Source: Candidatus Bathyarchaeota archaeon (GTDB lineage Archaea > Thermoproteota > Bathyarchaeia > Bathyarchaeales > Bathycorpusculaceae). Taken from it: DNA of 64,000 bases. Both the position numbers and the translations under genes were made by a program. Positions 5,226 through 43,345 of this stretch are shown here, piece by piece. Numbering within the stretch: position 1 is the first letter of the stretch; each line of letters begins with the position of its first letter. Location: the NCBI GenBank assembly GCA_963828195.1, contig CAWHDT010000009.1:32001-96000 (forward strand). The letters are read 5' to 3'. The notes under the pieces were generated by a model. It saw only the letters and a program-made list of their open reading frames with translations, was not told where the DNA came from and ran no database searches.

Positions 5226-5458
5226 AATTTGAGAACTAGAAGCTCACAGTAAATGGAACAATGTTTCATTTGCTTGCTTCAGGCTGTAGTCACAATTCTA
5301 TATATGTTTCCATACAAAAAATGTAGTGAAAGGAATGACCTTTTTTTCGGTGTTATGAATGATAAAAACAGCTTTTTTTCTGCCAGAAATCGCAGTTAGT
5401 TTGCATAGTTCAAAGTCGGATTCTAAAGCGCTTGCGCTAAACTGGAGGTTAGAATAAC

Positions 5459-7363
5459 TTGCTTAAGAACAAAGTAGCCGCAAAACTTATGATCACCCTT
5501 CTTCTTGTCGGGGTGATTGCGGGAATCGGAGTCGTTGCATACCAATCTTCTTTTAGCCAGCAGACCTCCAAAGTCGTCTACGGTCAAACTCTTGTTCCGG
5601 TTCCAGGCGCTTCAGTATATGCTTCGGGCGATAACGGCGCGGGATCTGCGACAGCTGACTCTAATGGCAACTATGAAATAAGCAGTTATCTTGACACAGG
5701 CAGTTATTCAGTAACAGCTTCCGCGCCGGGTTTCCTTGACCAAACAATCAACGAAATTAACGTAACTTCAGGCGCTGAAACCACAAACGTCAACATAGAT
5801 CTCAGCGTCTCAGGCGGCATTTCAGGAACAGTAACTGATGCCACAACAGGCTTGCCATTAGCAGGAGTCTTTGTCACAGCTTTCAACGCAACAGATGGTT
5901 CAGGTGCCGAATATGCAATTACGGATTCGAATGGCAACTACCAAATTACTCAAAATCTTCCAAGCGGAACCTATAATGTAACTGTTGATTTTGCGACAGG
6001 ATATCTTTACACAACTGTGAGCGATGTCTCAGTTACTGCTGGTTCAATGACAAGCAACGTGAATTTTGCCCTTGCTCTCTCTGGAATAATCACTGGAACA
6101 GTAACAGATGCAACTACAGGCGCTCCCCTGCAAGGCATTAGTGTTGAGGCAATAAGCGATGATGAAGCGTATGCTGGATTTGCAATAACGAATTCTGCTG
6201 GACAATACACGATGAACACTAATTTGGCTTCAGACACTTACAACGTAACAGCAGATTTTCCGACAGGTTACATCACAAACATGGTTTCGGACATAGTAGT
6301 AACTGCTGGACAAACAGCTACAGCTAACATTGCACTTAGTCAATCGGGCGTCATCTCTGGAACAGTAACAAACATAGCCACTGGACAGCCCCTTGCAGTC
6401 GCATCCATTTACGTTTCTTCGTCATCGGGCGGTTTCGGCTTTGCAACAACCGACGCGTCAGGGAACTATATAGTTAACACTGATTTGACAACAGGAAGCT
6501 ACATTGTCGAAGCGTTCTATGGGACTTCTTTTGCAACTTACCCTACAGCTGTTAATGTTGTCGCAGGCCAAACGACGTCTAACATTAACTTCCAGCTTAC
6601 CGTCGCGCCTTCGGGAACGATAAATGGGCAAGTCACGAGTTCAACAGGTGGTCCAGTAATCGATGCATCTGTTAGCGTGCAAGGTCTCGGCGGCTCCAAC
6701 AGCAATGACACAGACATCAACGGCAACTACATCGTATCAAGCGATCTGGGAACCGGAACCTACTCAGTCACCGTTACGGCAACAGGATATGTCTCGCAAA
6801 CCCAAACTGGAATTTCAATCACAGTGAATCAAGTAACAGGCAACGTTAATTTTGTGTTGACTCCTGAACCTTCAGGAAGCATTTCGGGCCAAGTATTGTC
6901 CACACAAACCAACCCGTTCCCAACTCCTACACCAGCACCTACCCCGTCACCTACAATTGCGCCAACCCCAACCCCGTCCACGACTCCTGCGCCCACTGCA
7001 ACTCCCGCACCAACCCCGACACCTGCACCTACAACAACCCCGGCTCCCACTGCCACACCTGCCCCAACAGCAGCTCCAACAACCGCGCCATACCAAACAA
7101 CCACACCTGTAACATCGCCAACCGCCGCTCCAACCACGGCACCCACAACCGCGCCAACAACTCACCCATCAGCTACACCAACACCCACTGCTAAGCCAAC
7201 ATCAAAACCAACGGTTGCCCCCTCCACGACGCCAGTATCCTCTTCAGGCATACCACAAGGGTACGTCTATGGACTAGTTGTTGTCGTAATTATAATCGTA
7301 ATCATTGCAGCCGTGCTTACGCTAAGATGGCGTGGAACAAGAAAAAGCAAAGTACAACCATGA
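5459..7363 (+). CDS. Surface glycoprotein with ~5 carboxypeptidase-regulatory-like (beta-sandwich) repeats, Pro/Thr linker and C-terminal anchor
   Basis: Repeats SGxISGTVTDATTGxPLxG..TDSNGNY..LxxGTYNVT; PTPAPT tract; terminal TM; GGAGG RBS. Confidence 0.85.
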   Translation: MLKNKVAAKLMITLLLVGVIAGIGVVAYQSSFSQQTSKVVYGQTLVPVPGASVYASGDNGAGSATADSNGNYEISSYLDTGSYSVTASAPGFLDQTINEINVTSGAETTNVNIDLSVSGGISGTVTDATTGLPLAGVFVTAFNATDGSGAEYAITDSNGNYQITQNLPSGTYNVTVDFATGYLYTTVSDVSVTAGSMTSNVNFALALSGIITGTVTDATTGAPLQGISVEAISDDEAYAGFAITNSAGQYTMNTNLASDTYNVTADFPTGYITNMVSDIVVTAGQTATANIALSQSGVISGTVTNIATGQPLAVASIYVSSSSGGFGFATTDASGNYIVNTDLTTGSYIVEAFYGTSFATYPTAVNVVAGQTTSNINFQLTVAPSGTINGQVTSSTGGPVIDASVSVQGLGGSNSNDTDINGNYIVSSDLGTGTYSVTVTATGYVSQTQTGISITVNQVTGNVNFVLTPEPSGSISGQVLSTQTNPFPTPTPAPTPSPTIAPTPTPSTTPAPTATPAPTPTPAPTTTPAPTATPAPTAAPTTAPYQTTTPVTSPTAAPTTAPTTAPTTHPSATPTPTAKPTSKPTVAPSTTPVSSSGIPQGYVYGLVVVVIIIVIIAAVLTLRWRGTRKSKVQP

Positions 7364-7638
7364 ATTAGGCAAACAGCAAAAATTCCCCTTTCTTTTTTTG
7401 TTAAAAGCAACTAAATACAATCTGAGACTTTTGTGTTCCGTTTCTCTTCAGTTTCCCTAAACCAAATGTTTTATACGAGTCAGCCTTAAACCATCCTTTT
7501 TTAAAGGTTTTTTTTCGTGAATACGCAAACGAGGATCTTTCACGATTCAAAGCATTGATAAATAAGGCGTACAGTAGTTTATCGCCGAATTTTAAAATAG
7601 AAAAACTCGCCTCGGAGAAAAACTCTGTTTAAGCGGTG

Positions 7639-7743
7639 TTAGGCACATAGGGGCAAATCGTAATGTTTGTGGGCATGCAAATCTAGTTCTTTGCTTTCCC
7701 TAAAATTTGAGCCGCACCACGGGCACTCAAAATGTTCTTTCAT
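7639..7743 (-). CDS. 34-aa C2H2 zinc-finger microprotein
   Basis: MKEHFECPWCGSNFRESKELDLHAHKHYDLPLCA: C-x2-C-x3-F-x5-L-x2-H-x3-H; dyad motif and TATA upstream; below ORF-track cutoff. Confidence 0.7.
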   Translation of the reverse strand: MKEHFECPWCGSNFRESKELDLHAHKHYDLPLCA

Positions 7744-7792
7744 AACACTTGCATCTATCAAACAAGTTAGCTTTATTTTGTTTTTAAGTTTA

Positions 7793-7816
7793 TGTGGGTG
7801 GCAATCCGATACAACA
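7793..7816 (-). promoter_or_regulatory. 24-bp dyad regulon site
   Basis: TGTTGTAT-N8-CACCCACA-taaac-TTAAAA. Confidence 0.6.
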
Positions 7817-7962
7817 CCTTTAAAGCAAAATGCGACGTTTTCACATTTTTTTTGTTATAATGCAGATTATTCCAGCTACCAGCAACAAAGCCGTCAATAT
7901 CACTGTCGAAGCGGCAAAAACACCAGTAGCCCGCAAGCTACCGTGGTTCTATGCATCCGCAA

Positions 7963-11078: not shown

Positions 11079-11083
11079 AGCTC

Positions 11084-16447: not shown

Positions 16448-16526
16448 CAATTGAAGATTATTGCCTCTGGATCGAAAAATCGATGCATGCAGCTTTGGGC
16501 GATCATTTGCCGCCTTTCCCCGGAAG

Positions 16527-16783
16527 GTAGAACTTAAATTTTCATGGTTGGCGCGCAACAGTCACATAGTCTTAAGAGTTATCTTGTTTTTTCTTTTTTG
16601 TTTCTCCTTGAGTGTGGAGGTGAATGTTTTGTCAAAGAATACGCGTTCTTCGGAAAATATGGAGCCCAAAACGACTTCCGACGGCAAATACCTCTGTGAA
16701 GCGGACAACAAAAAATTCAGCACAAAAGAAGACTACACTAAGCATTGCTCAGAAGCGCACACGAAAAGCAGAGAAAATAAAGC
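16527..16783 (+). repeat. ~255-bp duplication of 43305-43558 (promoter plus zinc-finger gene)
   Basis: Near-identical sequence from GGTAGAACTTAAATTTTCATGGTTGG to GAAAATAAAGCA. Confidence 0.9.
16543..16566 (+). promoter_or_regulatory. 24-bp dyad regulon site (degenerate left half)
   Basis: CATGGTTG-N8-CAGTCACA-tagtc-TTAAGA. Confidence 0.55.
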
Positions 16784-18210: not shown

Positions 18211-18214
18211 TCTG

Positions 18215-21677: not shown

Positions 21678-21701
21678 TGTGGGTTGCTCTGTACAGTCAC
21701 A
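21678..21701 (-). promoter_or_regulatory. 24-bp dyad regulon site heading the cox operon
   Basis: TGTGACTG-N8-AACCCACA-caagt-TTAAAA. Confidence 0.65.
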
Positions 21702-23871: not shown

Positions 23872-23895
23872 TGCTGTCAGTGTTAGCCAACAACA
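23872..23895 (-). promoter_or_regulatory. 24-bp dyad regulon site (variant right half)
   Basis: TGTTGTTG-N8-TGACAGCA-cagcg-TTATAT. Confidence 0.45.
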
Positions 23896-25984: not shown

Positions 25985-26008
25985 AGTGGTTGTAGAGACA
26001 CAGCAACA
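25985..26008 (-). promoter_or_regulatory. 24-bp dyad regulon site heading the chaperonin
   Basis: TGTTGCTG-N8-CAACCACT-tagtt-TTAAGA. Confidence 0.65.
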
Positions 26009-30674: not shown

Positions 30675-30698
30675 TGTGACTGCAAAGCAAAGCCAACA
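30675..30698 (-). promoter_or_regulatory. 24-bp dyad regulon site heading ppdK
   Basis: TGTTGGCT-N8-CAGTCACA-tatct-TTATTT. Confidence 0.65.
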
Positions 30699-32244: not shown

Positions 32245-32373
32245 GACGGCTTGCTCTAAAGTCGAAACTAAGACTTAAGTTACCTTCGATCTGGAGATAC
32301 AAAAAAGTCTTAGTATTAACGCTGAAATAGTATATATAGCAACTTTGTCTTTTAGTCTGTAGGTTGAAAAGTT

Positions 32374-32598: not shown

Positions 32599-32673
32599 TT
32601 GTTTTTGATGCACTTTATCTAAAGGCGTTTTAACCAACTTGACATTTCCAACTCTGGAACGGCAGCATTGTGT

Positions 32674-33000
32674 TCATCGAATTCGTAAATCTTTTTTTCT
32701 TTCAATCAAGTCTGTAATTTCATCAAATTCATTTGTGTAGTCCTTATGTTCCTTAACTAATCTTTTGAGTCTATTTTGGTTAAAGTATCCTTCATAAAAT
32801 CCGAAGAACATTATTGCAAAGAGCATGTCTTTGGTTTTGTGATATTCCATGGTTGCTTTCCAATGCCTAAGCGTATGGAAGGTTATTTTCTATAGTCTTG
32901 GGTTCTTGCTTTTCGATACTGCGATTTTTCTGCTGTGCTCTAAGAGTATAGCTGTGATTTTTAGGCTTGTTCCACCGAAGACGTACTTTGATGTTTTTGG
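32674..33000 (-). pseudogene. Tyrosine recombinase (integrase) relic fused to a fragment paralogous to the 36636-37664 gene
   Basis: KNPRL*KITFHTLRHWKATMEYHKTKD (HxxR box, in-frame TAG at 32890) running into FAIMFFGFYEGYFNQNRLKRLVKEHKDY. Confidence 0.75.
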
Positions 33001-33083
33001 TAAATCTGTTAAGTGTTCTATGAAACGATACAAAATCTCTGTAGTTGGCGTTATTTCTAAAAATAATAAGTTCTGCACTATGT

Positions 33084-33107
33084 TGTAGGTGTTAACTCAC
33101 ATCGACA
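33084..33107 (+). promoter_or_regulatory. 24-bp dyad regulon site upstream of the glycosyltransferase
   Basis: TGTAGGTG-N8-CATCGACA-tagtt-ATTTAG. Confidence 0.5.
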
Positions 33108-33227
33108 TAGTTATTTAGGGCATGAATGGGAATACAGAGTTAAGGTTGAGCGGGTTGGAGTACAACCATTTTTTCCCGCATCACTTTTAATAAGAGTTGA
33201 ATTAAACGATTTAACTTTTTAAGAGGA

Positions 33228-33935
33228 TTGATCAAAGTGGAAAATGGAGAAGAAAACGAAAGACTTTCGACGCAAGTTATCATAGCTGCGTTAAACGAGG
33301 AAGAAGGAATCGGATTAACAATAGCTGAACTCCAAGACTATCTGGGTTCCGCTAGAATTTTGGTAGTTGACGGAAATAGTATTGACAGGACCGTAGAAGC
33401 CGCCAAGAACTTGGGCGCTGAAATCGCTTTTCAAGATGGCAGGGGCAAGGGAGACGCGTTAGCCAAAGCTGTTGAACTTATTGACGTTAAAACTGATTAT
33501 GTAATAATTACGGATGCCGACTTCACATACCCAGCAGAATTCATTCCCAAAATGATCCAAATATTGAAAGATGACCCATCCACTGGTATGGTTTGTGGCA
33601 ACAGATTTACTGAAAATTTAGATTCACGTGCCTTGCACAATGTGTTCTACGTTGGAAATCGGCTCATAGCTTTTACTCATAATTTTTTAAACGGAATTCA
33701 TTTATCCGATCCTTTGACTGGGTTACGAGTCGTGCGTGCTGAAATTCTTAGAAACTGGAAAGTTAAATCCAAAGGTTTTGACATCGAGGTGGAGCTTAAT
33801 CATCGAGTAGAGCGAGAAGGTTTTGGTATTATTGAAATCCCAATTAATTATAGAGAAAGATTGGGTGAGAAAAAATTGGGCGTTAGGCACGGCACTGAAA
33901 TTTTAAGACGCATAATGCTGGAAACGATTTACTAG
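33228..33935 (+). CDS. GT2 glycosyltransferase (Dpm1-like)
   Basis: IIAALNEE, VVDGNS.D.T, GKG.A, DAD.TYP, D.LTG.R, FDIEVE. Confidence 0.9.
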   Translation: MIKVENGEENERLSTQVIIAALNEEEGIGLTIAELQDYLGSARILVVDGNSIDRTVEAAKNLGAEIAFQDGRGKGDALAKAVELIDVKTDYVIITDADFTYPAEFIPKMIQILKDDPSTGMVCGNRFTENLDSRALHNVFYVGNRLIAFTHNFLNGIHLSDPLTGLRVVRAEILRNWKVKSKGFDIEVELNHRVEREGFGIIEIPINYRERLGEKKLGVRHGTEILRRIMLETIY

Positions 33936-34434
33936 GGCAAAATTCTTAACGCATAAATAAAGTCTTTTCAAGTGGACGAATTATTAAAAAGCTTCATGAA
34001 TAATTTTGAGCAAAAAGAACACTCCGGTCCGAAGCAGGGACACACAGATCATCAACAGGCATTCCTGCCGAAATCATGATGTCCCCCAAAATAGGATATT
34101 TTGGCGGCGTTGCGAGCATCGGCAAAATGTTGAACCTTTTCTTAAGACCCGACGCCTAAACTTGCGCTTATAACGTTAAAGTCATGGTGTAAAATCCGCA
34201 GTATTCTTCTTTCTCACCTGGTTTTCAACATTACTAATTTGAAAAGACAAAATTTTTAGTCGAGTAAAAACTCGTATTATGTCTATACCCAAAATTTGAA
34301 GGATATTGTCCAACTTGTTCGCTGGAAGTTATTTTTTTGAAATGTGTAATAAAAAAAATGTACAAACTGTGAAAAAAACTGTAACGATGTCAAATATTTA
34401 TACTAAATGACAGCTCTTATGCAATATTAGCGGT

Positions 34435-34635
34435 TTATGCTTTTTTTGGCTTTATTGCTATTTTAACATTTACCTCGACAGTATATTCGTTTTCTAGTTT
34501 TCCAACAGTAAAATGCCAATCTTTTACGTTCACATCCATATCTTTAAAATGACTAGTTAGGGCATCTTTATACTCGTTAACTGTTTGACCTATTTTCTGT
34601 AATCGCTCGGTAACGTCAATATGTTTCTCAGACAT
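34435..34635 (-). CDS. 66-aa hypothetical protein
   Basis: GGAGGTG RBS; dyad motif upstream. Confidence 0.75.
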   Translation of the reverse strand: MSEKHIDVTERLQKIGQTVNEYKDALTSHFKDMDVNVKDWHFTVGKLENEYTVEVNVKIAIKPKKA

Positions 34636-34698
34636 TCATATGCACCTCCCAAAACAGGATAGACATTATAGTAATTTCTCACACTGCTCATAAGGTTG

Positions 34699-34722
34699 TG
34701 TGAATGTGGCTTAACAGCTACT
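34699..34722 (-). promoter_or_regulatory. 24-bp dyad regulon site
   Basis: AGTAGCTG-N8-CATTCACA-caacc-TTATGA. Confidence 0.6.
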
Positions 34723-34749
34723 AAACCCTAATTCATGCATAACTCAAGT

Positions 34750-35097
34750 TTACTTCATGGCAGACGGTTTAGGAGATCTCAATTGATTTTTTATAATTAT
34801 GATAAGCGATAAAATAAGCAGCGTACCTGTAACGCCTGAAATAATACCCATAATGTCCCAAGCCTTCCATGCCGGCATGAAAGTGCTAAGATATTCTTGC
34901 TGCCCAATTAATAAGAAAAGAGAAGCTGACCCAATTAAAGAAGTTACCAAGACTAACAAAACACTACTGATTACTCCAATGATCAGAAGTTTTTGGAGTC
35001 GTTTCTTGAGAGCAGCCTCAGTTTCGTGCAGATAGGCTCTGAGAATGGACTTAATCTCATTAAAAATTGCATCGACGATTTCCCTTACGAGCGGCAA
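34750..35097 (-). CDS. Two-TM membrane protein (YqjE/holin-like architecture)
   Basis: Amphipathic N-terminal helix then two TMs. Confidence 0.6.
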   Translation of the reverse strand: MPLVREIVDAIFNEIKSILRAYLHETEAALKKRLQKLLIIGVISSVLLVLVTSLIGSASLFLLIGQQEYLSTFMPAWKAWDIMGIISGVTGTLLILSLIIIIKNQLRSPKPSAMK

Positions 35098-35200
35098 CTA
35101 ATAGTTACCCCCAAATCTAAATAGCAAGCTAATCACAATCCCATTTGCGCATTATTCAGAAGTAAAACTGAGCGGTGTATTGAGGGTACTTATGCTCTGA

Positions 35201-35629
35201 TTATGGTATTGATGATTTAGGAGCTGCAGAGACCGTGGATGTGTTAGGAGCGATTGAGTTGTTAGCATAACCGGTGGAAAACGGTGCCTGGAATTTGCCT
35301 ATGTTTTCTCTGATTATTCCATAGCCCTGTTCTGCTTCAGTGTTAGGCAAATCACCTAATGATAGTGGTTCTCCGCCGAGCCTAAGGGTACATTTGATAG
35401 TCAACCGCAGTATGCCCTTTTCCAATACAACGTTGGCTATGTCTCGGTAATTGTAATCAGTATAATCCTTCTTTAAACCAAGTGCGTGAGGATGACGAAG
35501 AAGCATACGTTCATTTGTAAAGACGACAGAGTCAATATTAATCTGAGGATGGTAAATTTTCTGTTTAATATACAACTCAACCTTCTCGTTTGGACCCAGT
35601 ATTTTCGATATATCATCAGGAGCATCCAT
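35201..35629 (-). CDS. Bacterial PH (bPH) domain protein, paralog 1
   Basis: LGPNEKV..SVVFTNERM..DYTDYNYRDI.NV.LEKGI; paralog at 39763. Confidence 0.8.
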   Translation of the reverse strand: MDAPDDISKILGPNEKVELYIKQKIYHPQINIDSVVFTNERMLLRHPHALGLKKDYTDYNYRDIANVVLEKGILRLTIKCTLRLGGEPLSLGDLPNTEAEQGYGIIRENIGKFQAPFSTGYANNSIAPNTSTVSAAPKSSIP

Positions 35630-35692
35630 AAACTTTAACCAACTTTCCACTGTTAATTGTAGAATTGTAACGAGTGAGGAGATAAATAGCTG

Positions 35693-35716
35693 TGTGACTG
35701 GGAGGTCACATCTACA
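35693..35716 (-). promoter_or_regulatory. 24-bp dyad regulon site
   Basis: TGTAGATG-N8-CAGTCACA-cagct-ATTTAT. Confidence 0.7.
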
Positions 35717-36286
35717 TCGCACCGAAACTCGACAAAATGCACCTTTTTAGCAATAAGATTTAGAAGTTAAAGCATTAGGTTTTCGAATAACTTTCTAAAG
35801 TATTCAATTGTAAACAACTGCTTAAACGCGTAAACCATTAAATCAAACGCTATATTATTTCCACCAATTGTCGTGGCAATTAAATATCTTACAATATAAT
35901 TTCTAACAAAATAACGGCATTGCAGGGTTTAGACCAAAATCAATTTCGCCATTTACAAAAAAAAATCGGATATTATCTTCTTCATCTGGCGATCTTAGTA
36001 TTCTAATCATTTTAATTTTGGAGACTTCAAAGATATTTTTCTCGCTTTTTGTTAGCCGATTTATTTTTCTTTAAAGCGAAACCTAAGAATCGTTTTGGGA
36101 ACTGATTTTTATTAGAGTAAGTTGGCTTTTTGGGAGATGAGTATGATTAGCGCGGAATTGAGAAGGTCATTAGTAATGTATGAAAGACTGATTCGATTTG
36201 TTTTCGGCTGATGAAGCTCTAAGCTGCTTGAGATAAAAGGTGCAATTCACTCAAAAACAACTGGGCTGTAAAAGTGAATTAAAGAA

Positions 36287-36391
36287 CATGCTTTGGCGGA
36301 TCTACACACGTTATCAAGAAGCGAACACTAAGAAGATTTCGAAAGGTACAAATTATTCGCATCTTGTTTAACGCTGATCCGCCGAAGCGTG
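36287..36391 (-). ncRNA. ~105-nt rod-like hairpin RNA candidate downstream of a regulon promoter
   Basis: 16-bp outer stem CATGCTTTGGCGGATC/GATCCGCCGAAGCGTG plus three inner helices; no credible ORF; strand assigned from the promoter. Confidence 0.5.
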
Positions 36392-36437
36392 TGATATTAC
36401 ACTTTCATTAATGCTTATCTTTTACAATAAATAACCT

Positions 36438-36461
36438 TGTGACTGGGGGTCTACAGTAACA
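36438..36461 (-). promoter_or_regulatory. 24-bp dyad regulon site (near-consensus)
   Basis: TGTTACTG-N8-CAGTCACA-aggtt-ATTTAT. Confidence 0.7.
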
Positions 36462-36635
36462 GTATTGATAATTTCTAGAAATTTCTTTCTAAACCAGGTT
36501 ACTCAATCGGTCAGATAACAAAAACAACCTATCATTCAAATGTTTATTTCACTCAGTAACAGTTCAACGCTAAACCGCTATCAAAAAAAAAAAATGAAAT
36601 TGACAATTCGACCCATCAATCTATATACTTTCTAA

Positions 36636-37664
36636 CTATTGGACCACTTTGCCTGCAATTGGAAGGGATCTAATTCGCAGATCCTTTTTCCTTTCAATCA
36701 GATCAGTAATTTCATCGAATTCGCTGGTGTAGTCTTTATGTTCCTTAACTAACCTTTTGAGTCTATTTTGGTTAAAGTAGCCTTCGTAAAATCCGAAGAA
36801 CATGATTGCAAAGAAACCATAAACAAGATAATTACCAAATGCTGCAGCTCCTTGCGATATAACTAAGAGTAAAATCGGAAAAAGTACACCAAGAGAACCA
36901 ATGTAAGCCGACATTGCCCCAATTAGAGCGCCCATGACATCAATCTTATTATCATTTATGCTCTTGGCAAGACCAGCTTTTCTTTCCCATAATGTTGATG
37001 TATCGCTGAAATCAACTGCACTGAACAAGCTATCAAAAGCTCCAACCGAAATATTGTTTGTTCGACTTTTGAAAGCGCTGTTCATTTTTAGGTGGTAAAA
37101 CTCGCGATGCTCCTGATATTCACGCTTAATGATTGTGGCATCTATATACGGCGTTCGTCTAACCATACGAAAAGCATACTTTACGTTTTCAACAAACTTT
37201 TTACCTACCAATTCTTGTTCAGCTTTTTTTGCAGCACGCGCCTCATTAAGAATATCTTGTCTTTCTTCTTCCTTCAGAGTTTGCTTCTCTTTAGCAGTCA
37301 TCATTTTGTGAGAAAATCGATGATCATTAGAACATTTGTAAATTATGGTAGAAACCGGCGGAGGTATGCTGTATTCTGAAATTTTTTCTGCACAATAAGG
37401 ACAAATATATCCAGAATCGTCCCAATCTGGAGCTTCATCTATCTTCTTACTATTATCTTTCTCCCACTTTTTTATCCAATGTCTTGTGTGTCCCCAACCG
37501 CCGCTCAAGCTAAGGTATAGAACTTTTGAATCTTGTATCGCTTGCATGATTTCTTCTTCTGTTCGGACTTGACTTTTTTCACATTTTAGTGTGAGTTCCG
37601 CAGGTTTTTCAGGGACGTCTAATGTTTTTTTCTCTTCAACTGTTAACTGCTTTATTTTACTCAT
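36636..37664 (-). CDS. Hypothetical protein with zinc ribbon and two C-terminal TMs
   Basis: CPYC..CSNDH; coiled region; hydrophobic C-terminal pair. Confidence 0.75.
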   Translation of the reverse strand: MSKIKQLTVEEKKTLDVPEKPAELTLKCEKSQVRTEEEIMQAIQDSKVLYLSLSGGWGHTRHWIKKWEKDNSKKIDEAPDWDDSGYICPYCAEKISEYSIPPPVSTIIYKCSNDHRFSHKMMTAKEKQTLKEEERQDILNEARAAKKAEQELVGKKFVENVKYAFRMVRRTPYIDATIIKREYQEHREFYHLKMNSAFKSRTNNISVGAFDSLFSAVDFSDTSTLWERKAGLAKSINDNKIDVMGALIGAMSAYIGSLGVLFPILLLVISQGAAAFGNYLVYGFFAIMFFGFYEGYFNQNRLKRLVKEHKDYTSEFDEITDLIERKKDLRIRSLPIAGKVVQ

Positions 37665-37886
37665 TTTTTTCCTCTACACTCCAACAAGGGCCAGGGATTC
37701 GACTTGTTTTGATTGTTTGTTTTTGCACAAAAATAGAGGGCTCATGACCAATAATTGCATCTTCGTGATTAATCATTCTGCAGATCAACAATTGAGACTG
37801 AGCCATTACACTTTTACCGGGATAATCTGTTAAATTAAGAAAATATGTTGTTGAAAAGTTCGGGGTCATAATTTCAACCTATAGAG

Positions 37887-38042
37887 TTATAATAGTTTGC
37901 GTCCACGAAGCAGTCTAAGTACCACTAGAATTATAACGACAACAATCAAAAGGTCAACCAATCCACCAATTGTGAAAAAGCCAACAAGCCAAAGGACAAA
38001 TAAAACCATCGCGAGGAGTATTATTAAATCATCATTTTTCAT
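37887..38042 (-). CDS. 51-aa lmo0937/DUF5670-like membrane protein
   Basis: MKNDDLIILLAMVLFVLWLVGFFTIGGLVDLLIVVVIILVVLRLLRGRKLL (LWLxG..GG....L..GR pattern); not in ORF track. Confidence 0.75.
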   Translation of the reverse strand: MKNDDLIILLAMVLFVLWLVGFFTIGGLVDLLIVVVIILVVLRLLRGRKLL

Positions 38043-38089
38043 AAACTACTTCAACATCTTTTAAGGTATGAAAACTCTATTTAAATGTC

Positions 38090-38113
38090 TGTGAATGTGA
38101 AGTCCCAGCAACA
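38090..38113 (-). promoter_or_regulatory. 24-bp dyad regulon site
   Basis: TGTTGCTG-N8-CATTCACA-gacat-TTAAAT. Confidence 0.75.
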
Positions 38114-38328
38114 GTTAAGTTAGCTTTCTAATGCTTTTTTAAAATCATATTGTTTCCGGGCATTGTGAAGAATTAAGCTATTCGTGAATATAATTCCAAT
38201 CATAGAACTAATGAAATCTTGCGATAAATGAACCTGCTATTTATTTGAAAATTTTCTTTATCCATTGTAATTTAATAAAAAAAATGATTTGCAATAGCCA
38301 ACTAAGGCATTTATTGCAAATACTCAAA

Positions 38329-38619
38329 CTAAGTCTTAACTACTGGTCTTAGATACATGTGGAGCTGATCTTTTGAAACTTTCAGTTGTAATCCTTTGTC
38401 TGTCCAGCGTGCAATTCCTTTCTCTAGGGATGAAACGGCCAGCATGTTTCGTACTCCGCCTTTCTTTGCGCCAAGTACTGATTCAGCTATGTTCTTTTCT
38501 AATTCGATTTCAAGATGAGTTACTTTCCAATCTTCTGGGTCTATTCCTAATTCTTTGACTTTGCCAATTTTCAACTCTTCAGCAAAAACATCTTTATCTA
38601 AAAAATCTTTACTATTCAT
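38329..38619 (-). CDS. PRC-barrel domain protein
   Basis: FLDKDV...KIGKV.EL.ID..DWKVTHL.I; GAGG RBS. Confidence 0.8.
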   Translation of the reverse strand: MNSKDFLDKDVFAEELKIGKVKELGIDPEDWKVTHLEIELEKNIAESVLGAKKGGVRNMLAVSSLEKGIARWTDKGLQLKVSKDQLHMYLRPVVKT

Positions 38620-38688
38620 ACAATCTAACCTCCTCTACGCTTATAATTTTGAATACTTTATAAAGGGTCATTGGAAGAGTTAAGCGCT

Positions 38689-38712
38689 TGTGAATGTGAC
38701 CCTACACCGACA
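38689..38712 (-). promoter_or_regulatory. 24-bp dyad regulon site
   Basis: TGTCGGTG-N8-CATTCACA-agcgc-TTAACT. Confidence 0.6.
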
Positions 38713-38761
38713 CGGCTTTAAAGAATTTGAAACATAAATCCCATGAAAATGAATCTCTTAA

Positions 38762-39577
38762 TTATTCTTCAGCTTTTTTCCAATCAGATTCAAAACTAGT
38801 TCGAAGTACTCCGATAAGGTTGCAGTTATTTGTCCAAAGGGAGGGGCTTTCGCCTAATCCGCTTTCTTTGGAGGTGGTAATTAATGCTTCTTTATCGTCA
38901 GACATTATAAAGTGATTTAGAGGGTCACGATGAAACTTGACATGAACTGAGGCGGTACCGATGAGTTTTTTCACTTTCTCCTTAAGTAAAACATCTGGTT
39001 TTTCGCCTTCAAAAAGCAATCGAATCATAGCTCCCTGCTTTATCGCCAATTTGTATTCATCGGAAAATTGAAACAAAACAGGCATAATCCTTCCCTTGTC
39101 CGCTATTAACGCGACTTCTTTTTTAGAGTTCCTAATCAAATCTGCAGTTTTAGCAAAAATTGATTTCTTTTCCCCTATCAGTATGTAGGTGCTTTCTTCT
39201 TTGGGAAGTGTTTGCTTCCAGTCTTTAAGGGTCAGTTTTTGAACTATTCCCCTCATACCCACAAGTCGCTCATCAGATTTGCCTTTTTCTTCGGATACCA
39301 AGAGGCTTAAAGCATCTGAAATGAGGGTAGCCCTGATCTCAATTGGTTTGCCCAATAATCTTTCAATCAGGCCCATTTTTTCGAGTGACGGCAGAATTCT
39401 GTAGACATCTTCTCTGCGCACTTTTGAAAAGTTTGCTACTTGTCCTACCGTAGTTTTTTCGAGTTTAAGTATTGCTAAGTAAACCTTTGCCTGGTTAAGA
39501 GTTAAACCCAAACCAAGCAGCAAGTCAGTGTTTTCATCGTTCGTCATTCTATCAATTAACATTTTGTATCCTTGCAT
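38762..39577 (-). CDS. TrmB-family transcriptional regulator
   Basis: LGLTLNQAKVYLAIL..VRREDVYRILPSLEKMGLI wHTH; C-terminal FIMSDDKEALI..SLWTN..F...W effector domain. Confidence 0.88.
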   Translation of the reverse strand: MQGYKMLIDRMTNDENTDLLLGLGLTLNQAKVYLAILKLEKTTVGQVANFSKVRREDVYRILPSLEKMGLIERLLGKPIEIRATLISDALSLLVSEEKGKSDERLVGMRGIVQKLTLKDWKQTLPKEESTYILIGEKKSIFAKTADLIRNSKKEVALIADKGRIMPVLFQFSDEYKLAIKQGAMIRLLFEGEKPDVLLKEKVKKLIGTASVHVKFHRDPLNHFIMSDDKEALITTSKESGLGESPSLWTNNCNLIGVLRTSFESDWKKAEE

Positions 39578-39762
39578 ATTTATGTTTTTAATTTCTTTTG
39601 AAGCTAAAAAAGGGATTACAAAAAAGGATCCCGCAAACGTATTCGAATATGGCGCCTACAGTCAGATCGTGATTAGCTTTATTTTAATAAAATACAAACC
39701 TGCATCTAAAAAAAGTATTAACAGCAAAAAAAGATTTCTAGCGATCGCTAGCTTGCTGGTGG

Positions 39763-40179
39763 CTATTTGGGTACGTTGGGAACAGTCGCATATCCAGTTG
39801 AAAATGGCGATTGGAATTTGCCAATATTTTCTCTGATGATGCCGTATCCCTTTTCTGCAAGATCATTTGGTAAGTTATCCAAATCCAGATGTTCGCCTTC
39901 TTGCTGCTTTCCCTGATTTTCTAACCCGTGCTTAACCGTGAGTTTGATGGTTGAACGTTTTATTCCTTTTTCTAACGTTACATTCGTTATATCTCTATAA
40001 CTGTAATCAGTGTAATCTTTCTTTAAGCCAAGTGCGTGGGGATGCCGAAAAATTATTCGTTCATTCGTTATGATTATTGATTCAATGTTAATTCGAGGAT
40101 GATAGATTTTTTCCTCAATGTACAGCTCAACTTTTTCGTTAGAGCCAAGTATATTCTTTATGTCTTCTGGAGTTGTCAT
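39763..40179 (-). CDS. Bacterial PH (bPH) domain protein, paralog 2
   Basis: Strongly similar to 35201-35629, including the upstream promoter. Confidence 0.8.
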   Translation of the reverse strand: MTTPEDIKNILGSNEKVELYIEEKIYHPRINIESIIITNERIIFRHPHALGLKKDYTDYSYRDITNVTLEKGIKRSTIKLTVKHGLENQGKQQEGEHLDLDNLPNDLAEKGYGIIRENIGKFQSPFSTGYATVPNVPK

Positions 40180-40231
40180 AATAATCAACCAATTTACTTG
40201 TAGTAATATCACTTATTTCGATAAATAGCTG

Positions 40232-40255
40232 TGTGACTGGGGAGCCACATAGACA
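40232..40255 (-). promoter_or_regulatory. 24-bp dyad regulon site
   Basis: TGTCTATG-N8-CAGTCACA-cagct-ATTTAT. Confidence 0.65.
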
Positions 40256-40327
40256 AGAGAGTTACTTCTTGCTTTTCAGAATCTCTTTAGAGAGACTTCT
40301 TCAAAACCCGTAAGAGGAATGTTTAGT

Positions 40328-40654
40328 TTATCCCAATACGAAGCCGATGATTACTCCTACTATGAATCCAATGCTTAACGGTAGGATGCCTATGATGAGT
40401 GCTCCATACTGATAGACGATTGAGCCGTATTGTGTTGCGTAGTTTTTCAACACGTTAAGACTTAAACCGAAAAAGCCAAAGTAGGCAACCACAAAGAGTA
40501 TGATTGCAGCTATGATAGCAATTTTTAGAAATAAATGGATTAGAAAGCCAACAATCAATCCAACAACAAATATTATTATCATTAATATAATTGGTGACAA
40601 ACCGCCTATGCTTCCAGACGTAATGAAATGAAATACTTGACCTAACGCGTCCAA
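40328..40654 (-). CDS. Small membrane protein (FUN14-like pattern)
   Basis: GLIVGF...LK and C-terminal LP..GF..G...GF. Confidence 0.65.
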   Translation of the reverse strand: MDALGQVFHFITSGSIGGLSPIILMIIIFVVGLIVGFLIHLFLKIAIIAAIILFVVAYFGFFGLSLNVLKNYATQYGSIVYQYGALIIGILPLSIGFIVGVIIGFVLG

Positions 40655-40706
40655 AGTCTACAACTCCTCAACAAACGATAGAAGCATAAAAGGGCTTTTA
40701 AGCTTG

Positions 40707-40730
40707 TGTGGCTGTTTGCCACCAGCAACA
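40707..40730 (-). promoter_or_regulatory. 24-bp dyad regulon site (near-consensus)
   Basis: TGTTGCTG-N8-CAGCCACA-caagc-TTAAAA. Confidence 0.75.
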
Positions 40731-40922
40731 GGATGTCTGCTGCTATATTCAAACCCAACATTGTGGGATTATAAAGGAAGAGCGCTTATAAAGTAAAAGA
40801 GTGCTGACAAAAGGAAGGCACTAGTAAAACATAATGTAAATCGAAAAGATAAACAATCCTTTCTAAAAAACAGACTCAAAGAAGTTACAAGAAAAAAAGA
40901 TTTTTTCGATTTTTGGTCTCGC

Positions 40923-41252
40923 CTATTTTGGCTGCGACTTAACGAATATTGATAGTAATCCCAGAAGGGCTCCGAGAATAACTAAAACTCCTCCTATTCC
41001 GCCTGAAACAATTCCAAGCACTAATAGCACTATCGCCCATGGTAAAGTTCCAACAGACTTTGACCCAATTATGCAGATCGCCCCAATTACTATTGCTACT
41101 ATGCTGTACATTACTCCAGTCAAGTAGTGGCCAGCCGGCGAGAAAACGCTACCGAAAGAAGACCCTATAAGGCCAAACAAGCCAAAGACGATTATGAGTA
41201 TTCCACCTATCAACGCAAGGATATATCCCCAATACGCAAAATTATTCTTCAT
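40923..41252 (-). CDS. Gly-rich small membrane protein
   Basis: GAGGTG RBS; 3-4 TMs. Confidence 0.75.
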   Translation of the reverse strand: MKNNFAYWGYILALIGGILIIVFGLFGLIGSSFGSVFSPAGHYLTGVMYSIVAIVIGAICIIGSKSVGTLPWAIVLLVLGIVSGGIGGVLVILGALLGLLSIFVKSQPK

Positions 41253-41336
41253 TTTTTAGTTCACCTCTGCAGAAATTTGTTTAGCATCCTAACTGATTAT
41301 TTGAAATAATTTCGCGTGAAAAAATTCACGCTCATT

Positions 41337-41759
41337 TTAGATGTGGGGGAAGAATGTTCCCGGAACCACTATACCAAAGAGGGCCCCAAATATTATGCTA
41401 ACTACGACGAAGATTATCCACGCCAATATGGCTACTGCGATGGCTCCCAGCCAGCCAGTTCTAAAGCTTGCTTTGTAGACCCATATCCACGTTATGAGAG
41501 CTAAAATTAATGCGATTACATAAGCCGTTGAGCCAATTAGCGACCCCAGAAAGTAACCCACTATAATCAATGTGACAGCATAAACTATTGGGCCAAACAA
41601 TGTGGCAAGCATGGCTTCGCCGAAGGTGGCTTTTCCGCCAGTTACTGCTTTGCCGGCTAACCATACGGGTATTGAAACTACAACCCAAAGAATAATCAAA
41701 CCAATTATCGTTACAAGAAGACTCATTAAACTAATATTTCCAATAATAAGATTGCTCAA
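41337..41759 (-). CDS. Four-TM membrane protein
   Basis: AGGTG RBS; hydrophobic throughout. Confidence 0.75.
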   Translation of the reverse strand: MSNLIIGNISLMSLLVTIIGLIILWVVVSIPVWLAGKAVTGGKATFGEAMLATLFGPIVYAVTLIIVGYFLGSLIGSTAYVIALILALITWIWVYKASFRTGWLGAIAVAILAWIIFVVVSIIFGALFGIVVPGTFFPHI

Positions 41760-41808
41760 AGGCTACACCTGTTAAGTTACTTAGGGGTGTGGATAAGTAT
41801 TAAGTCTG

Positions 41809-41832
41809 TGTGGCTGTAGCCCCCCATCAACA
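41809..41832 (-). promoter_or_regulatory. 24-bp dyad regulon site
   Basis: TGTTGATG-N8-CAGCCACA-cagac-TTAATA. Confidence 0.72.
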
Positions 41833-41953
41833 AAGCGGTATGTTGTTTGAAAAAACCATAGTTCCGACCTAGAGCGCAAAACTGCACGATTAAGTGGGAC
41901 AGTGGAGCTTGATACTTAAGCCATCTGCAAACAAAAACCCCGTCATGCCCTGA

Positions 41954-41977
41954 TGTTGCCGTTACTTTGTAATCACA
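41954..41977 (+). promoter_or_regulatory. 24-bp dyad regulon site (divergent partner of 41809)
   Basis: TGTTGCCG-N8-TAATCACA-cacgc-TTAAGT. Confidence 0.65.
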
Positions 41978-42023
41978 CACGCTTAAGTTTGTAAATGACG
42001 ACCTATCGGTAGAGGTGAATGCA

Positions 42024-42161
42024 ATGGCAGGAGCGAAGAGAAAAGTTGAAAATGCCGCGGAAGAAACTGGAGAGGCAGTTGGCAAAGGCATCAAAAAGGG
42101 TGCTAAAGCTGTGGATGATTTTGGAAAGGGTCTAAAGAAGGAACTCAAGAAAAAAGACTAA
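42024..42161 (+). CDS. 45-aa LEA/CsbD-like hydrophilic protein
   Basis: GAGGTGA RBS; MAGAKRKVENAAEETGEAVGKGIKKGAKAVDDFGKGLKKELKKKD; not in ORF track. Confidence 0.75.
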   Translation: MAGAKRKVENAAEETGEAVGKGIKKGAKAVDDFGKGLKKELKKKD

Positions 42162-42255
42162 AATAAGCAAATTCCCTTTTCACAAACAAAAAAGAAAAGT
42201 ACTTGTTTTTATTTATTGACTCATAGAATTCAAACTGTTCTTGGATTGAAATTTT

Positions 42256-43257
42256 TTGGAAAACCATGAATATAACTTTCAGGAAACATTCAGGTTAGCC
42301 CTTAGACTGTATCGTGGTTTTCTCTTAAACTCACTGGGCATAAAAGCTCCAATGATAAGTGGACACAAATTAACTTATAACTGCAACCTTAAATGTAAAA
42401 TGTGTCCGTTCTGGAAACGATCCAACGAAAATTTAAGCACCCAAAAAGAAAAAGAAATTCTAAAGCAAATTTACGATTCAGGCGTTTGCGCAGTGGGGTT
42501 TGAAGGCGGAGAGCCGCTTTTAAGAAAAGACTTGCCTGAAATTTTAGCGTATTCTCGCTCTCTGCCTCTACATACAAGTCTTATCACCAATGGAACGCTG
42601 CTCAAATCAAGGATAGATGAGATCGCACCATACATCAACGGCATTCTGTTTGTTTCGCTGGATGGTCTGGAGAAAACTCATGACGCCATAAGAGGGGTTA
42701 ATGGCTGCTTCAAAAATGCGGTGCAGGGCATAAATGCTGCTAAGAGGAAGGTTTCTGTAACAATTAATACGACTATTATGGCTGAAAACCTCGATGACGT
42801 GGAAGATACGGTGAAGTTGGCTAAGGATTTGGGTGTGAGAATAGTTTTGTCAGCTTCTCATGAGTACCATGATGTCGAATCTTCTGCGCCTGAAGCCGTT
42901 GGAATCAAGAAGCTTGCAAACCAGCTTATTGAATTAAAAAAACAAGGCTACCCAATCATGAATTCAATTAATTACTTTAAAGTACTAGCTAAAGAGAAAA
43001 GCTGGCAGTGCAAACCATGGGCAATAGTAAACATTGATCCAAACGGACAAGCCGTCTTGCCGTGCTATGTTCACAATGATTACGCAAGCAGCATACCTAT
43101 TTCTGGAACTGGCATAAAAAACGCTGTTAATCAATTTGACTGGAAAAAAATCGAAAACTGCCAAAAATGCGGTCTGCATTGTTATGTTGAGCCTTCTTTG
43201 GTGCTTTCATGGGATTTTAGAGCGTACATGCATTGGGGTCTTCATGTTAACGTCTAA
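42256..43257 (+). CDS. Radical SAM protein with Twitch/SPASM-type C-terminus (PTO1314-like)
   Basis: CNLKCKMC, GGEP, TNG, VSLDG, C.PW..PC..CQKC..HCYVEPS. Confidence 0.88.
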   Translation: MENHEYNFQETFRLALRLYRGFLLNSLGIKAPMISGHKLTYNCNLKCKMCPFWKRSNENLSTQKEKEILKQIYDSGVCAVGFEGGEPLLRKDLPEILAYSRSLPLHTSLITNGTLLKSRIDEIAPYINGILFVSLDGLEKTHDAIRGVNGCFKNAVQGINAAKRKVSVTINTTIMAENLDDVEDTVKLAKDLGVRIVLSASHEYHDVESSAPEAVGIKKLANQLIELKKQGYPIMNSINYFKVLAKEKSWQCKPWAIVNIDPNGQAVLPCYVHNDYASSIPISGTGIKNAVNQFDWKKIENCQKCGLHCYVEPSLVLSWDFRAYMHWGLHVNV

Positions 43258-43321
43258 ACTTAGGCAATTGGGAATCTGAGCCAAAACTCGAAGACCAATT
43301 TTGCGGTAAAACTTAAATTTT

Positions 43322-43345
43322 CATGGTTGGTTCGATACAGTCACA
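43322..43345 (+). promoter_or_regulatory. 24-bp dyad regulon site (degenerate left half)
   Basis: CATGGTTG-N8-CAGTCACA-tagtc-TTATGT. Confidence 0.55.

Follow-up and report, generated by a model that had tools for sequence, protein, structure and literature searches.

The window, by which we mean the whole 64,000-nucleotide stretch of Bathyarchaeial DNA analysed here, belongs to genome G000 (genomes are given G numbers throughout) and carries a heme-copper oxidase operon, a thermosome paralogue, a pyruvate phosphate dikinase (PPDK) gene, a TrmB-family gene and many genes for small proteins, among which an imperfect palindrome recurs beside TATA boxes (Table 1). The initial annotation had listed 18 copies of this dyad. 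Scored with a 37-nt matrix of dyad, spacer and TATA box, built from 50 oriented genome sites and thus trained on the same genome that it then scores, 16 of them reached 20.3–34.3 bits in at least one orientation; the weak copy at 5271 dropped out, and the copy at 23872..23895 (minus strand) was rejected at 6.4 bits. No further window position reached 14 bits, so no site was missed in the window, and the regions before the lys, cas, rRNA and r-protein genes are free of the motif, as had been claimed. By our own crude ORF caller the sites mostly point towards a gene start, in line with the annotation, but several targets are ORFs of only 31–51 aa, and the stronger, minus side of the 36438 site faces no ORF of at least 30 aa. 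The labels COX2, Cpn60/thermosome, PPDK, bPH, TrmB and lmo0937 family stood, whereas the supposed PRC-barrel protein at 38329-38619 had no Pfam or NCBIfam match; this protein has an 88.5% identical, dyad-linked counterpart in G068. The membrane protein at 40328-40654 has dyad-linked orthologues in G047, G068 and G002, and the protein at 43400-43573 clusters by BLAST with other targets of this genome, of the DUF5752 / C2H2-finger kind. The TrmB gene is probably co-transcribed from the 40232 promoter and is a candidate or secondary regulator. The site-dense island is low in G+C.

Table 1. Dyad sites and the TrmB-family gene, in window positions, with scores from the dyad+TATA matrix.
Feature	Position	Strand	Score (bits)	Associated gene
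Earlier weak site, not counted	5271..5294	+	9.2	Proximal half-site and TATA only
Dyad site	7793..7816	-	20.5	Downstream only 40-aa ORF 7639-7761
Two-sided site	16543..16566	.	+ 21.1; - 20.3	+: small ORFs 16608-16832 and 16624-16821; -: GlgB-like gene 14337-16352, 180 nt off
Site	21678..21701	-	28.2	COX2 20885-21568, heme-copper oxidase operon
Site	25985..26008	-	34.3	Thermosome paralogue 24335-25903
Site	30675..30698	-	24.1	Pyruvate phosphate dikinase 27789-30623
Site	33084..33107	+	20.3	GT2 glycosyltransferase 33228-33935
Site	34699..34722	-	22.5	66-aa protein 34435-34635, paralogue of target G000:C5:87366-87608
Site	35693..35716	-	25.8	bPH-domain protein 35201-35650
Site	36438..36461	.	- 23.9; + 20.7	
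Site	38090..38113	-	27.8	lmo0937-family membrane microprotein 37887-38042
Two-sided site	38689..38712	.	+ 25.8; - 18.3	-: 96-aa protein 38329-38619
TrmB-family regulator gene, 271 aa	38762..39577	-		Inside site-dense island
Site	40232..40255	-	24.9	bPH-domain protein 39763-40212, then TrmB gene on same strand
Site	40707..40730	-	28.7	108-aa membrane protein 40328-40654
Site	41809..41832	-	30.0	140-aa membrane protein 41337-41759
Site	41954..41977	+	22.2	48-aa ORF 42015-42161 and radical-SAM gene 42256-43257
Site	43322..43345	+	22.4	57-aa protein 43400-43573

The palindrome TGT-N3-TG-N8-CA-N3-ACA is confirmed. Its exact core, TGTNNNTGNNNNNNNNCANNNACA, occurs 8 times in the window compared to a mean of 0.07 and a largest count of 1 in 100 dinucleotide shuffles, and with at most one mismatch it occurs 11 times compared to 1.91. 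Genome-wide (2.83 Mb) we found 36 exact cores versus 6, 1 and 1 in three Markov genomes, and 31 of the 36 are intergenic, intergenic sequence being 18% of the genome by our own calling. Intergenic strand matches to the dyad+TATA matrix at 16 bits or more numbered 100, versus 4, 1, 1, 0 and 0 in composition-matched sets. The earlier consensus, TGTTGCTG-N8-CAGTCACA, agrees with that drawn from the 50 genome sites, tTGT[T/G][G/A][C/T]TGt-N6-aCA[G/A][C/T]CACA. The matrix marks 75 distinct loci among 1834 intergenic pieces (roughly 4%), and 296 ordinary promoters have a weak A-rich BRE and no dyad, indicating that the element is special to a subset of promoters rather than a general promoter feature.

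The site is kept in other species and genera, and its distribution among Bathyarchaeial genomes is patchy. A strict oriented pattern was found in 10 of 61 family genomes, with no match to a reversed-pattern control in any of them, and in 19 of 251 class genomes, with one reversed match in total. Dyad and TATA box precede the thermosome orthologue at 23 of 27 loci, where the proteins are 55–78% identical, and in front of orthologous genes the core holds as the N6 centre and the variable positions change. The genera of G047 or G068 share at least 12 orthologous targets, among them Hsp20, MsrA, TatA, a cupredoxin and DUF5752. The sites of G049 are near-identical to one another.

The dyad holds a narrow phase to the TATA box. 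Counted without conditioning on TATA presence at 71 intergenic sites with at most one mismatch, TTTAWA-type hexamers begin 17 times at offset 4, 4 times at offset 5 and 7 times at offset 6 (together 28 of 71), and each remaining offset within 0–34 has at most 3; TTTAWA at offset 4 is the same spacing as TTAWA after 5 nt, which confirms the distance originally described. Of the 52 one-sided loci, 30 have a called gene start within 150 nt on the TATA side, 7 have one on the opposite side and 17 have no called gene at that distance; another 25 loci are two-sided, with a TATA box at either flank. The dyad thus lies upstream of the TATA box and away from the gene, which is the geometry described for archaeal activators (PMC5512572). 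An A at -3 is present in 35 of the 50 dyad promoters, which carry TTTAWA; ordinary promoters have A at -3/-4 in 46–47% and otherwise no BRE signal. The BRE of this lineage is too weakly defined to be graded, and these figures do not show the substitution for a poor BRE that the initial annotation proposed. The fixed distance between dyad and TATA, together with the three TFB and three TBP genes of G000, would also suit a case in which a TFB or TBP paralogue serves as alternative general factor and reads the element as an extended promoter signal, the initial annotation having allowed for an alternative TFB. We consider this very unlikely: two full TFB genes are present in each of motif-rich G047 and G068 (24 and 30 loose matches) and likewise in motif-less G037 and G082 (G068 additionally has a weak fifth TFIIB-repeat match), a third TFB was seen in G000 and G013 only, and TBP copies number two in G001, G047 and G068 yet two in motif-less G082 as well. 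Moreover, a 24-bp palindrome reaching 28 nt upstream of TATA is neither a BRE nor what a single TFB helix-turn-helix reads.

The two arms do not co-vary towards pairing. At the variable mirror positions, complementary pairs numbered 16 observed versus 27 expected, and 24 versus 35, and the distal/proximal bases at the 71 sites were T/C in 37, G/C in 15, G/A in 10 and T/A in 1, so that one GTCACA-type half is nearly always present, usually adjoining TATA. This absence of co-variation and the TATA-side half fit protein recognition with functional polarity rather than a hairpin. That the element is no protein site at all, and is instead a mobile promoter cassette present in many copies or a hairpin of DNA or RNA, is in our judgement extremely improbable, even though the 16543 site is a near-identical copy of the 43322 site with shared flanks, the G049 sites resemble one another closely and the island is low in G+C. 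Over 50 sites information is confined to dyad and TATA, with none conserved in the flanks, which argues that the dyad is not a repeat element; complementary pairs fall below chance at variable mirror positions; centre and variable positions drift before orthologues, with the core kept; and an RNA hairpin upstream of the TATA box would not be transcribed.

Genome-wide, the targets include the thermosome paralogue, Hsp20, MsrA, KGG/LEA-like proteins, two oxidase operons, cupredoxins, PPDK and many small proteins. Matches to Cpn60_TCP1, HSP20, PMSR and KGG/LEA_5/SASP-like families support the stress flavour first proposed for the set, although many members are unannotated; the stress label is carried by a minority of targets with names, since about half of those annotated have either no stress-related annotation or none whatever. 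Oxygen, the other theme proposed, did not prove to be the core, as COX1 was found in only two of the 61 family genomes (G000 and G068) while the motif is in 10. The targets form a large, previously undescribed set of stress-type genes that are probably switched together by a regulator protein.

Reading these sequence patterns together, we lean towards the dyad being the site of one dimeric transcription factor that adjoins BRE/TATA and most likely activates a lineage-restricted stress- or dormancy-type regulon; protein binding, dimerization, activation and the stress signal are what we infer here. One sequence-specific, two-fold symmetric factor would bind immediately upstream of BRE/TATA at about 75 promoter regions, many of them divergent pairs, and from this fixed position would most likely contact TFB/TBP and so activate transcription. 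The predicted output comprises protein-quality-control, hydrophilin-type, redox/copper and carbon-reserve proteins and many small membrane or unknown proteins, as might suit a stress or dormancy-type programme. The proximal ACA lies 5–7 nt from the TATA hexamer, overlapping the expected BRE position, so steric exclusion of TFB would fit the same geometry. The same factor could then be a repressor, blocking TFB at the BRE from up to 4 nt off TATA, with the regulon de-repressed under stress, and perhaps acting both ways at divergent promoters, a reading we think somewhat unlikely. Consistent with it, in G046, G044 and G049 the dyad stands 25–27 nt before the start codon of a TrmB-like gene of about 480 aa, on the TATA-less side, where it would cover the initiation region, the divergent gene being on the TATA side. 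Phr, an archaeal heat-shock regulator, is a repressor. TrmBL1 is reported to repress one direction and enhance the other at a single site (PMC4706686). However, the dyad never overlaps TATA, a phase of ±1 nt is not needed for steric repression, and the site is upstream of the promoter, not over the start site (30 versus 7 one-sided loci). In published cases repressors cover promoter elements or bind downstream of them, and activators bind on the upstream side of the BRE (PMC5512572).

For the activator that we favour, every candidate from known DNA-binding families failed to co-occur with the motif across the genomes compared. A TrmB clade with a KVRREDVYR helix is dyad-linked in eight genomes, as a 271-aa form in G000, G013, G053, G084 and G038 and as the ~480-aa form in G046, G044 and G049. 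The proposed co-occurrence with TrmB failed for a universal regulator, and a single TrmB regulator wherever the motif occurs was rejected, since this clade was not found in motif-rich G001, G047 and G068; there the best DNA-binding-domain identities are 41–43% (G001, G047) and 32–38% (G068), with different helices and no dyad nearby, and G077 has the TrmB gene and no strict motif match. Three HTH_45 (PF14947) proteins were also rejected. L011 has the dyad in front at 13 of 15 orthologue loci but was found in only 10 of the 25 genomes of the genus, with none in G001, G002, G010, G012, G013 and G016; L091 is in 56 of 57 genera, and of its 13 orthologue loci outside G000, 12 have no dyad (in this comparison L107 had just a 14.4-bit matrix match); and for L034 there is no orthologue in G013, G047 or G068. 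No exclusive group emerged among 61 HTH_45 proteins, made up of 40 of the 60 that matched in five genomes, minus one without a usable ORF, plus four known orthologues and 18 G000 paralogues.

The gene that tracks the motif best of those compared is L211, which encodes a 90-aa protein outside the window (G000:C9:148885-149157) and has no relative in Pfam, NCBIfam or PDB and no Foldseek match. No other gene was found to travel with the dyad across three Bathyarchaeia families; L211 always bears a top-scoring dyad itself, and dyad and TATA precede it at 22 of 22 genus loci. A bolder and quite doubtful proposal is that L211 is a new kind of DNA-binding regulator, which together with its regulon would make up a portable module that lineages gain and lose, installing a general stress/dormancy programme and capturing newly acquired genes such as oxidase operons. 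If true, these archaea would have their own equivalent of a SigB-type regulon, run by a protein of unknown fold.

Bathyarchaeia are abundant, uncultured archaea of soil, peat and sediment, and no work on their gene regulation was found in the literature searched, where the papers that came up deal with RNA polymerase subunits and with gene duplication. With its fixed phase at about 75 loci, the 24-bp site offers a ready-made, testable regulon, naming genes predicted to be switched together (the thermosome paralogue, Hsp20, MsrA, hydrophilins, copper proteins and dozens of unknown microproteins), and could give a handle on Bathyarchaeial physiological state in metatranscriptomes. The dyad is also a clean probe for capturing the regulator, its strict TATA phase at so many promoters would suit the study of archaeal activator contacts with TFB/TBP, and its patchy distribution makes one ask how an entire regulon can spread.

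SigB of Bacillus governs a bacterial general stress regulon, which resembles this set in its KGG-repeat/GsiB-like proteins, small heat-shock protein, methionine sulfoxide reductase and many small unknowns. SigB acts through sigma-factor promoters, whereas here a putative factor site stands beside an archaeal TATA box, so the resemblance is an analogy of content only. Among archaeal regulators, GvpE is a bZIP-like activator. The GvpE UAS of haloarchaeal gas-vesicle promoters is 20 nt long, adjoins the BRE and serves two opposite promoters, like our 25 two-sided loci, but it belongs to one locus and consists of two direct 8-nt portions (PMC2241852). Archaeal activators that bind just upstream of BRE/TATA include EarA, TFB-RF1, the ara-box and Ptr2; the sites of EarA, TFB-RF1 and the Sulfolobus ara-box lie 'immediately upstream of the BRE', as here, and help recruit TFB, but they serve at most a few weak-BRE promoters through direct 6-bp repeats or short boxes, in contrast to a 24-bp dyad at many promoters (PMC5512572). 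TrmBL1 activates from the Thermococcales glycolytic motif (TGM), TATCAC-N5-GTGATA, upstream of BRE/TATA, and this global palindromic site can likewise serve both directions of one divergent region (PMC4706686). The likeness extends to the TrmB-family gene in our island, dyad-linked in eight genomes. However, half-sites and spacing differ, and the TGM may lie up to 156 bp upstream or downstream, whereas our dyad is phase-locked (PMC4706686). Tar (TK0271) of Thermococcus kodakarensis, which activates transcription in vitro, recognizes TGGACA-N8-TGTCCA, and shares with our element a long-spaced palindrome upstream of BRE/TATA at several promoters, though with another sequence and at three operons compared to about 75 loci here (PMC6737238).

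Within the window, the 24-bp dyad TGT-N3-TG-N8-CA-N3-ACA occurred 8 times as an exact match compared to a mean of 0.07 and a maximum of 1 in 100 dinucleotide shuffles, and 11 times with at most one mismatch compared to 1.91 in shuffles. Across the whole genome (2.83 Mb on 9 contigs, with the window at G000:C9:32001-96000), we counted 36 exact matches, whereas three genomes simulated with a first-order Markov model gave 6, 1, and 1. Intergenic DNA, taken as the remainder after our own ORF-based gene calls (2756 genes) and making up 18% of the genome, contains 31 of these matches, and a TATA-like hexamer lies 3-7 nt from the dyad in 30. Fifty unique oriented sites gave the consensus tTGT[T/G][G/A][C/T]TGt-N6-aCA[G/A][C/T]CACA-(a)A-nn-TTTAWA, with zero information in the flanks outside the dyad and TATA box, which argues against reading the motif as a repeat element. 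A 37-nt matrix derived from these same 50 sites matched the genome at 113 strand positions (cut-off of at least 16 bits) versus 1 in a Markov genome, and matched intergenic DNA (500 kb, 38% G+C) 100 times versus 4, 1, 1, 0, and 0 in five sets simulated with the dinucleotide frequencies of intergenic DNA. After removal of two contig-end duplicates these intergenic matches form 75 distinct loci, 34 of which score in both orientations. The dyad that the initial annotation had proposed is therefore far above shuffled, Markov, and composition-matched controls. Sixteen of its 18 sites scored 20.3-34.3 bits, whereas those at 5271 (9.2 bits) and 23872 (6.4 bits) did not hold up; a matrix scan of the window found no further position of at least 14 bits.

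The initial annotation had also placed the dyad at a fixed distance from TATA, and this arrangement was upheld. Among 71 intergenic sites with at most one mismatch, chosen without a TATA criterion, the start of a TTTAWA-type hexamer lay 4-6 nt past the dyad in 28/71 (17 at offset 4, 4 at offset 5, and 7 at offset 6), compared to three sites or fewer at every remaining offset from 0 to 34. The 77 loci scoring at least 16 bits comprise 52 with a TATA box on one side and 25 with TATA-like boxes on both. For the one-sided loci, the TATA side has a called gene start within 150 nt in 30/52 and the opposite side in 7/52, while 17/52 are without a nearby called gene, many having small ORFs only. Because gene starts lie mostly on the TATA side, the dyad is positioned upstream of the promoter, roughly 5-28 nt 5' of the TATA hexamer. 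Half-sites are of either the GCAACA type or the GTCACA type, the latter nearly always present and usually TATA-proximal; the 71 sites include 37 distal-T/proximal-C, 15 symmetric, 10 reversed, and 1 double GCAACA-type combination. Complementary pairs at the variable mirror positions were fewer than expected under independence (16 versus 27.3 and 24 versus 35.0), which argues against a hairpin. Nor is the dyad a general promoter element, as would be the case if it preceded most promoters: 296 ordinary promoters aligned on a single TTTAWA lacked it, with A enriched at -3/-4 (46-47%) and nothing farther upstream.

We consider that the dyad is very probably a true binding site for a protein and marks a co-regulated set, and that, given such a site, activation is reasonably likely. 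A dimer docked on the dyad beside TFB/TBP would activate transcription, a reading that fits because of the +/-1-nt phase, the upstream position, and the half-site polarity; activation would run both ways at the 25 two-sided loci. A repressor blocking the BRE is a serious rival, and the final dyad triplet coincides with the expected place of the BRE. According to the available text of PMC5512572, activators in archaea usually occupy sites upstream of the BRE, where they recruit TBP or TFB, and repressors bind on or after the promoter.

Ten of the 16 window sites fall within 33-43.4 kb, in a stretch at about 32000-44000 where G+C is low (0.36-0.40 versus about 0.44) and a TrmB-family gene is included. 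Genes of this island recur with an adjoining dyad in G053, G084, G038, and G068 at 70-88% protein identity, and the stretch may be a transferable 'stress island'. Several further features are collected in the table. The duplicated promoters appear to be a recent duplication of a promoter-plus-gene unit, the contig-end copies an unresolved repeat or a collapsed assembly join, and the two-sided site may serve a non-coding RNA or a tiny protein.

Features of the genome under study (G000) and of two related genomes (G047, G068); plain coordinates count from the start of the window
Feature	Location	Observation
Island TrmB-family gene	38762-39577	271 aa
Duplicated promoters	16500-16620; 43280-43400	Near-identical dyad, TATA, and leader, flanks also conserved; precede small proteins related to DUF5752 / C2H2-finger targets
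Two-sided site	36438-36461	Good dyad; stronger side without an ORF of at least 30 aa
COX1, window oxidase operon	19494-20829 (G000:C9:51494-52829)	Pfam match split into two neighbouring parts (model positions 61-436 and 1-62) that share a few bases
CRISPR repeat (Rfam CRISPR-DR7)	57760-57796	Next to cas genes; dyad absent nearby
Contig-end copies	G000:C1:445456-446601; G000:C7:332696-333841	Identical; two KGG/LEA-like genes; genome's top dyads (34 and 40 bits)
L020, TFS/TFIIS-like zinc-ribbon paralogue	G000:C8:90086-90442	Dyad of 29.6 bits, 187 nt upstream
HTH_45 gene	G000:C8:22230-22577	Own dyad ~500 nt away, doubtful ORF between
L091, HTH_45 winged helix	G000:C8:101599-101892	97 aa
L211	G000:C9:148885-149157	90 aa
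L141, L156, L160, one protein family	G047:C103:71755-73378; G068:C24:5301-6924; G068:C42:3268-4891	77-84 aa; each behind a dyad with identical spacer and TATA; no BLAST match among our G000 proteins

Pfam and NCBIfam annotation of about 70 ORFs downstream of dyads identified proteins of quality control and damage repair (a thermosome paralogue, Hsp20, and peptide methionine sulfoxide reductase), hydrophilin-type KGG/LEA_5/SASP-like proteins, respiratory and copper proteins (two COX2-led oxidase operons, multicopper oxidase, cupredoxin, fasciclin, and TatA), carbon and sugar enzymes (pyruvate phosphate dikinase, a GlgB-like enzyme, a sugar-phosphate nucleotidyltransferase, and a GT2 transferase), and regulatory or signalling proteins (two HTH_45 winged-helix proteins, two receiver-only response regulators, two AsnC-ligand/GYD-domain proteins, a TFS-like zinc ribbon, C2H2-finger proteins, and DUF5752 proteins), together with bPH-domain proteins and an lmo0937-family microprotein. 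Many targets are small membrane or unannotated proteins. We lean slightly toward a stress or dormancy theme. Oxygen, which had been proposed alongside stress, did not emerge as a core theme: among 61 family genomes, COX1 was found only in G000 and G068, so that heme-copper oxidase is outside the conserved core and the oxidase operons of G000 appear to have joined the regulon later. A frameshift, an assembly error, or a gene that is truly split would account for the two-piece COX1 match. A search for AmoA gave no match, and since the control genomes also gave none in the same search, that search was weak. The zinc-ribbon paralogue L020 is possibly a stress-specific RNA-polymerase cleavage factor or inhibitor.

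We then compared related genomes; by their records, the lineage is one of Candidatus Bathyarchaeota MAGs from fen, bog, and soil. The thermosome orthologue has a dyad and TATA box (24-34 bits) upstream in 23 of 27 related loci, where the dyad core is kept and the centre and variable positions drift; of the remaining four, two are paralogues at 48-50% identity, one is a fragment, and one offers just 38 nt of upstream sequence. G047 and G068, from two other genera, have dyads upstream of orthologues of at least 12 G000 targets, including Hsp20, MsrA, TatA, cupredoxin, an F420-type oxidoreductase, DUF5752, the 96-aa and 108-aa island proteins, and the dyad-linked proteins L030, L211, and L011. 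A loose form of the pattern occurred 12-39 times per genome in 15 of 18 genus genomes versus 0-3 for the reversed control, and 0-3 times in 12 genomes from the order's other families; within the family, most genera were at background, with 11-30 matches in G047, G049, G068, G053, and G046. The strict oriented pattern (dyad, N4, TT) was present in 10/61 family genomes (control 0 in all 61) and 19/251 class genomes (control total, one match), and its distribution is therefore lineage-restricted and patchy. Beyond the family, it was found 24 times in G156 (another family of the same class), 4 times in G266, and once each in G167 and G295. The L141/L156/L160 proteins appear to be regulon members specific to other genera. 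In G049, the dyads on C33, C41, C52, C69, C75, and C119 are nearly identical to each other, centre included, which points to one promoter copy having spread recently and not to sites of independent origin.

An alternative TFB, initially proposed as a possible reader of the dyad, does not fit, nor does an alternative TBP, because copy numbers are equal with and without the motif: motif-rich G047 and G068 have two TFB and two TBP genes each, as does motif-free G082. G000 has three of each, and motif-free G037 two TFB and one TBP. Co-occurrence with TrmB likewise failed to single out a regulator. Orthologues of the island TrmB, 70-84% identical, lie beside dyads in G053, G084, G038, and G013, and a ~480-aa form with an identical recognition helix occurs in G046, G044, and G049. 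In motif-rich G001, G047, and G068 no member of this clade was found; DNA-binding-domain identity there was at best 32-43%, with other helices and no nearby dyad. G077 has the gene with 0 strict motif matches. TrmB is thus a regulator that is itself regulated, or one regulator among several, and is not the universal one. At the ~480-aa genes the dyad lies 25-27 nt before the start codon, on the non-TATA side, with a divergent gene on the TATA side; this arrangement suggests that a gene with the dimer over its start region could be silenced as well.

The HTH_45 proteins were rejected as well. L011 is dyad-linked in 13/15 orthologue loci but present in only 10/25 genus genomes, L034 has no orthologue in G013, G047, or G068, and a third gene is separated from its dyad (table). 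L091 is 81-91% identical in 56/57 family genera and not found in G006 and G018 (labelled same genus), at first a promising sign; however, 12/13 orthologue loci outside G000 are without a dyad, with one 14.4-bit match at locus L107. Because conservation is very strong for a small DNA-binding protein, L091 may be chromatin-like, and its absence from G006 and G018 means that these may be misplaced in the genus. An HTH_45 orthogroup comparison across five genomes (40 of 60 matches compared) yielded no exclusive group. The 100-aa protein L030 is a conserved target, yet it also occurs in motif-free G032, G087, G086, and G071.

The best correlate of the dyad was L211. Matches at E <= 1e-7 occurred in 8/10 strict-motif family genomes and 0/51 others, three of which gave weak matches (9e-7 to 7e-4). 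L211 is present in 19/25 genus genomes, the exceptions being motif-free G006 and G018, incomplete G009 and G011, and G017 and G095; distant motif-bearing G156 (5 copies) and G266 also have it, and their motif-free relatives G143, G159, and G024 do not. A dyad and TATA box precede L211 at 22/22 genus loci, in G047, G068, and G046, and at 2/5 copies in G156. Of 1127 homologues, the 120 listed carry only Bathyarchaeota or Bathyarchaeia as organism names and are nearly all 'hypothetical', with two source names judged spurious. No relative emerged in Pfam (best E 0.027), PDB (best E 0.92), or NCBIfam, and a protein atlas search gave no usable match. The AlphaFold model (mean pLDDT 71) predicts strand-strand-helix-strand, a basic linker, and a C-terminal helix, with 0 Foldseek matches in PDB at E <= 0.001; a two-copy complex prediction (score 0.23, mark 0.42) counts as evidence in neither direction. 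L211 is nevertheless unlikely to be the regulator, because relatedness makes the genomes non-independent and the identical pattern is expected of a constant target.

The initial annotation had recognised the motif from no described archaeal regulon, and we agree: literature on Bathyarchaeia/Bathyarchaeota yielded nothing relevant on a regulon, promoter, transcription factor, or oxidase. What is new is the regulon itself, its size, its strict phasing, and its lineage, and the regulator may come from an undescribed family. The kind of element, a factor site beside the archaeal core promoter, is already known. In the available portions of the respective papers, one UAS serves two divergent promoters in the case of GvpE (PMC2241852), and TrmBL1, an activator at upstream sites, is able to repress in one direction as it enhances in the other (PMC4706686). 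Tar, as described in the accessible part of its report, activates from TGGACA-N8-TGTCCA upstream of BRE/TATA (PMC6737238), and this site and the dyad are both widely spaced palindromes upstream of these elements.
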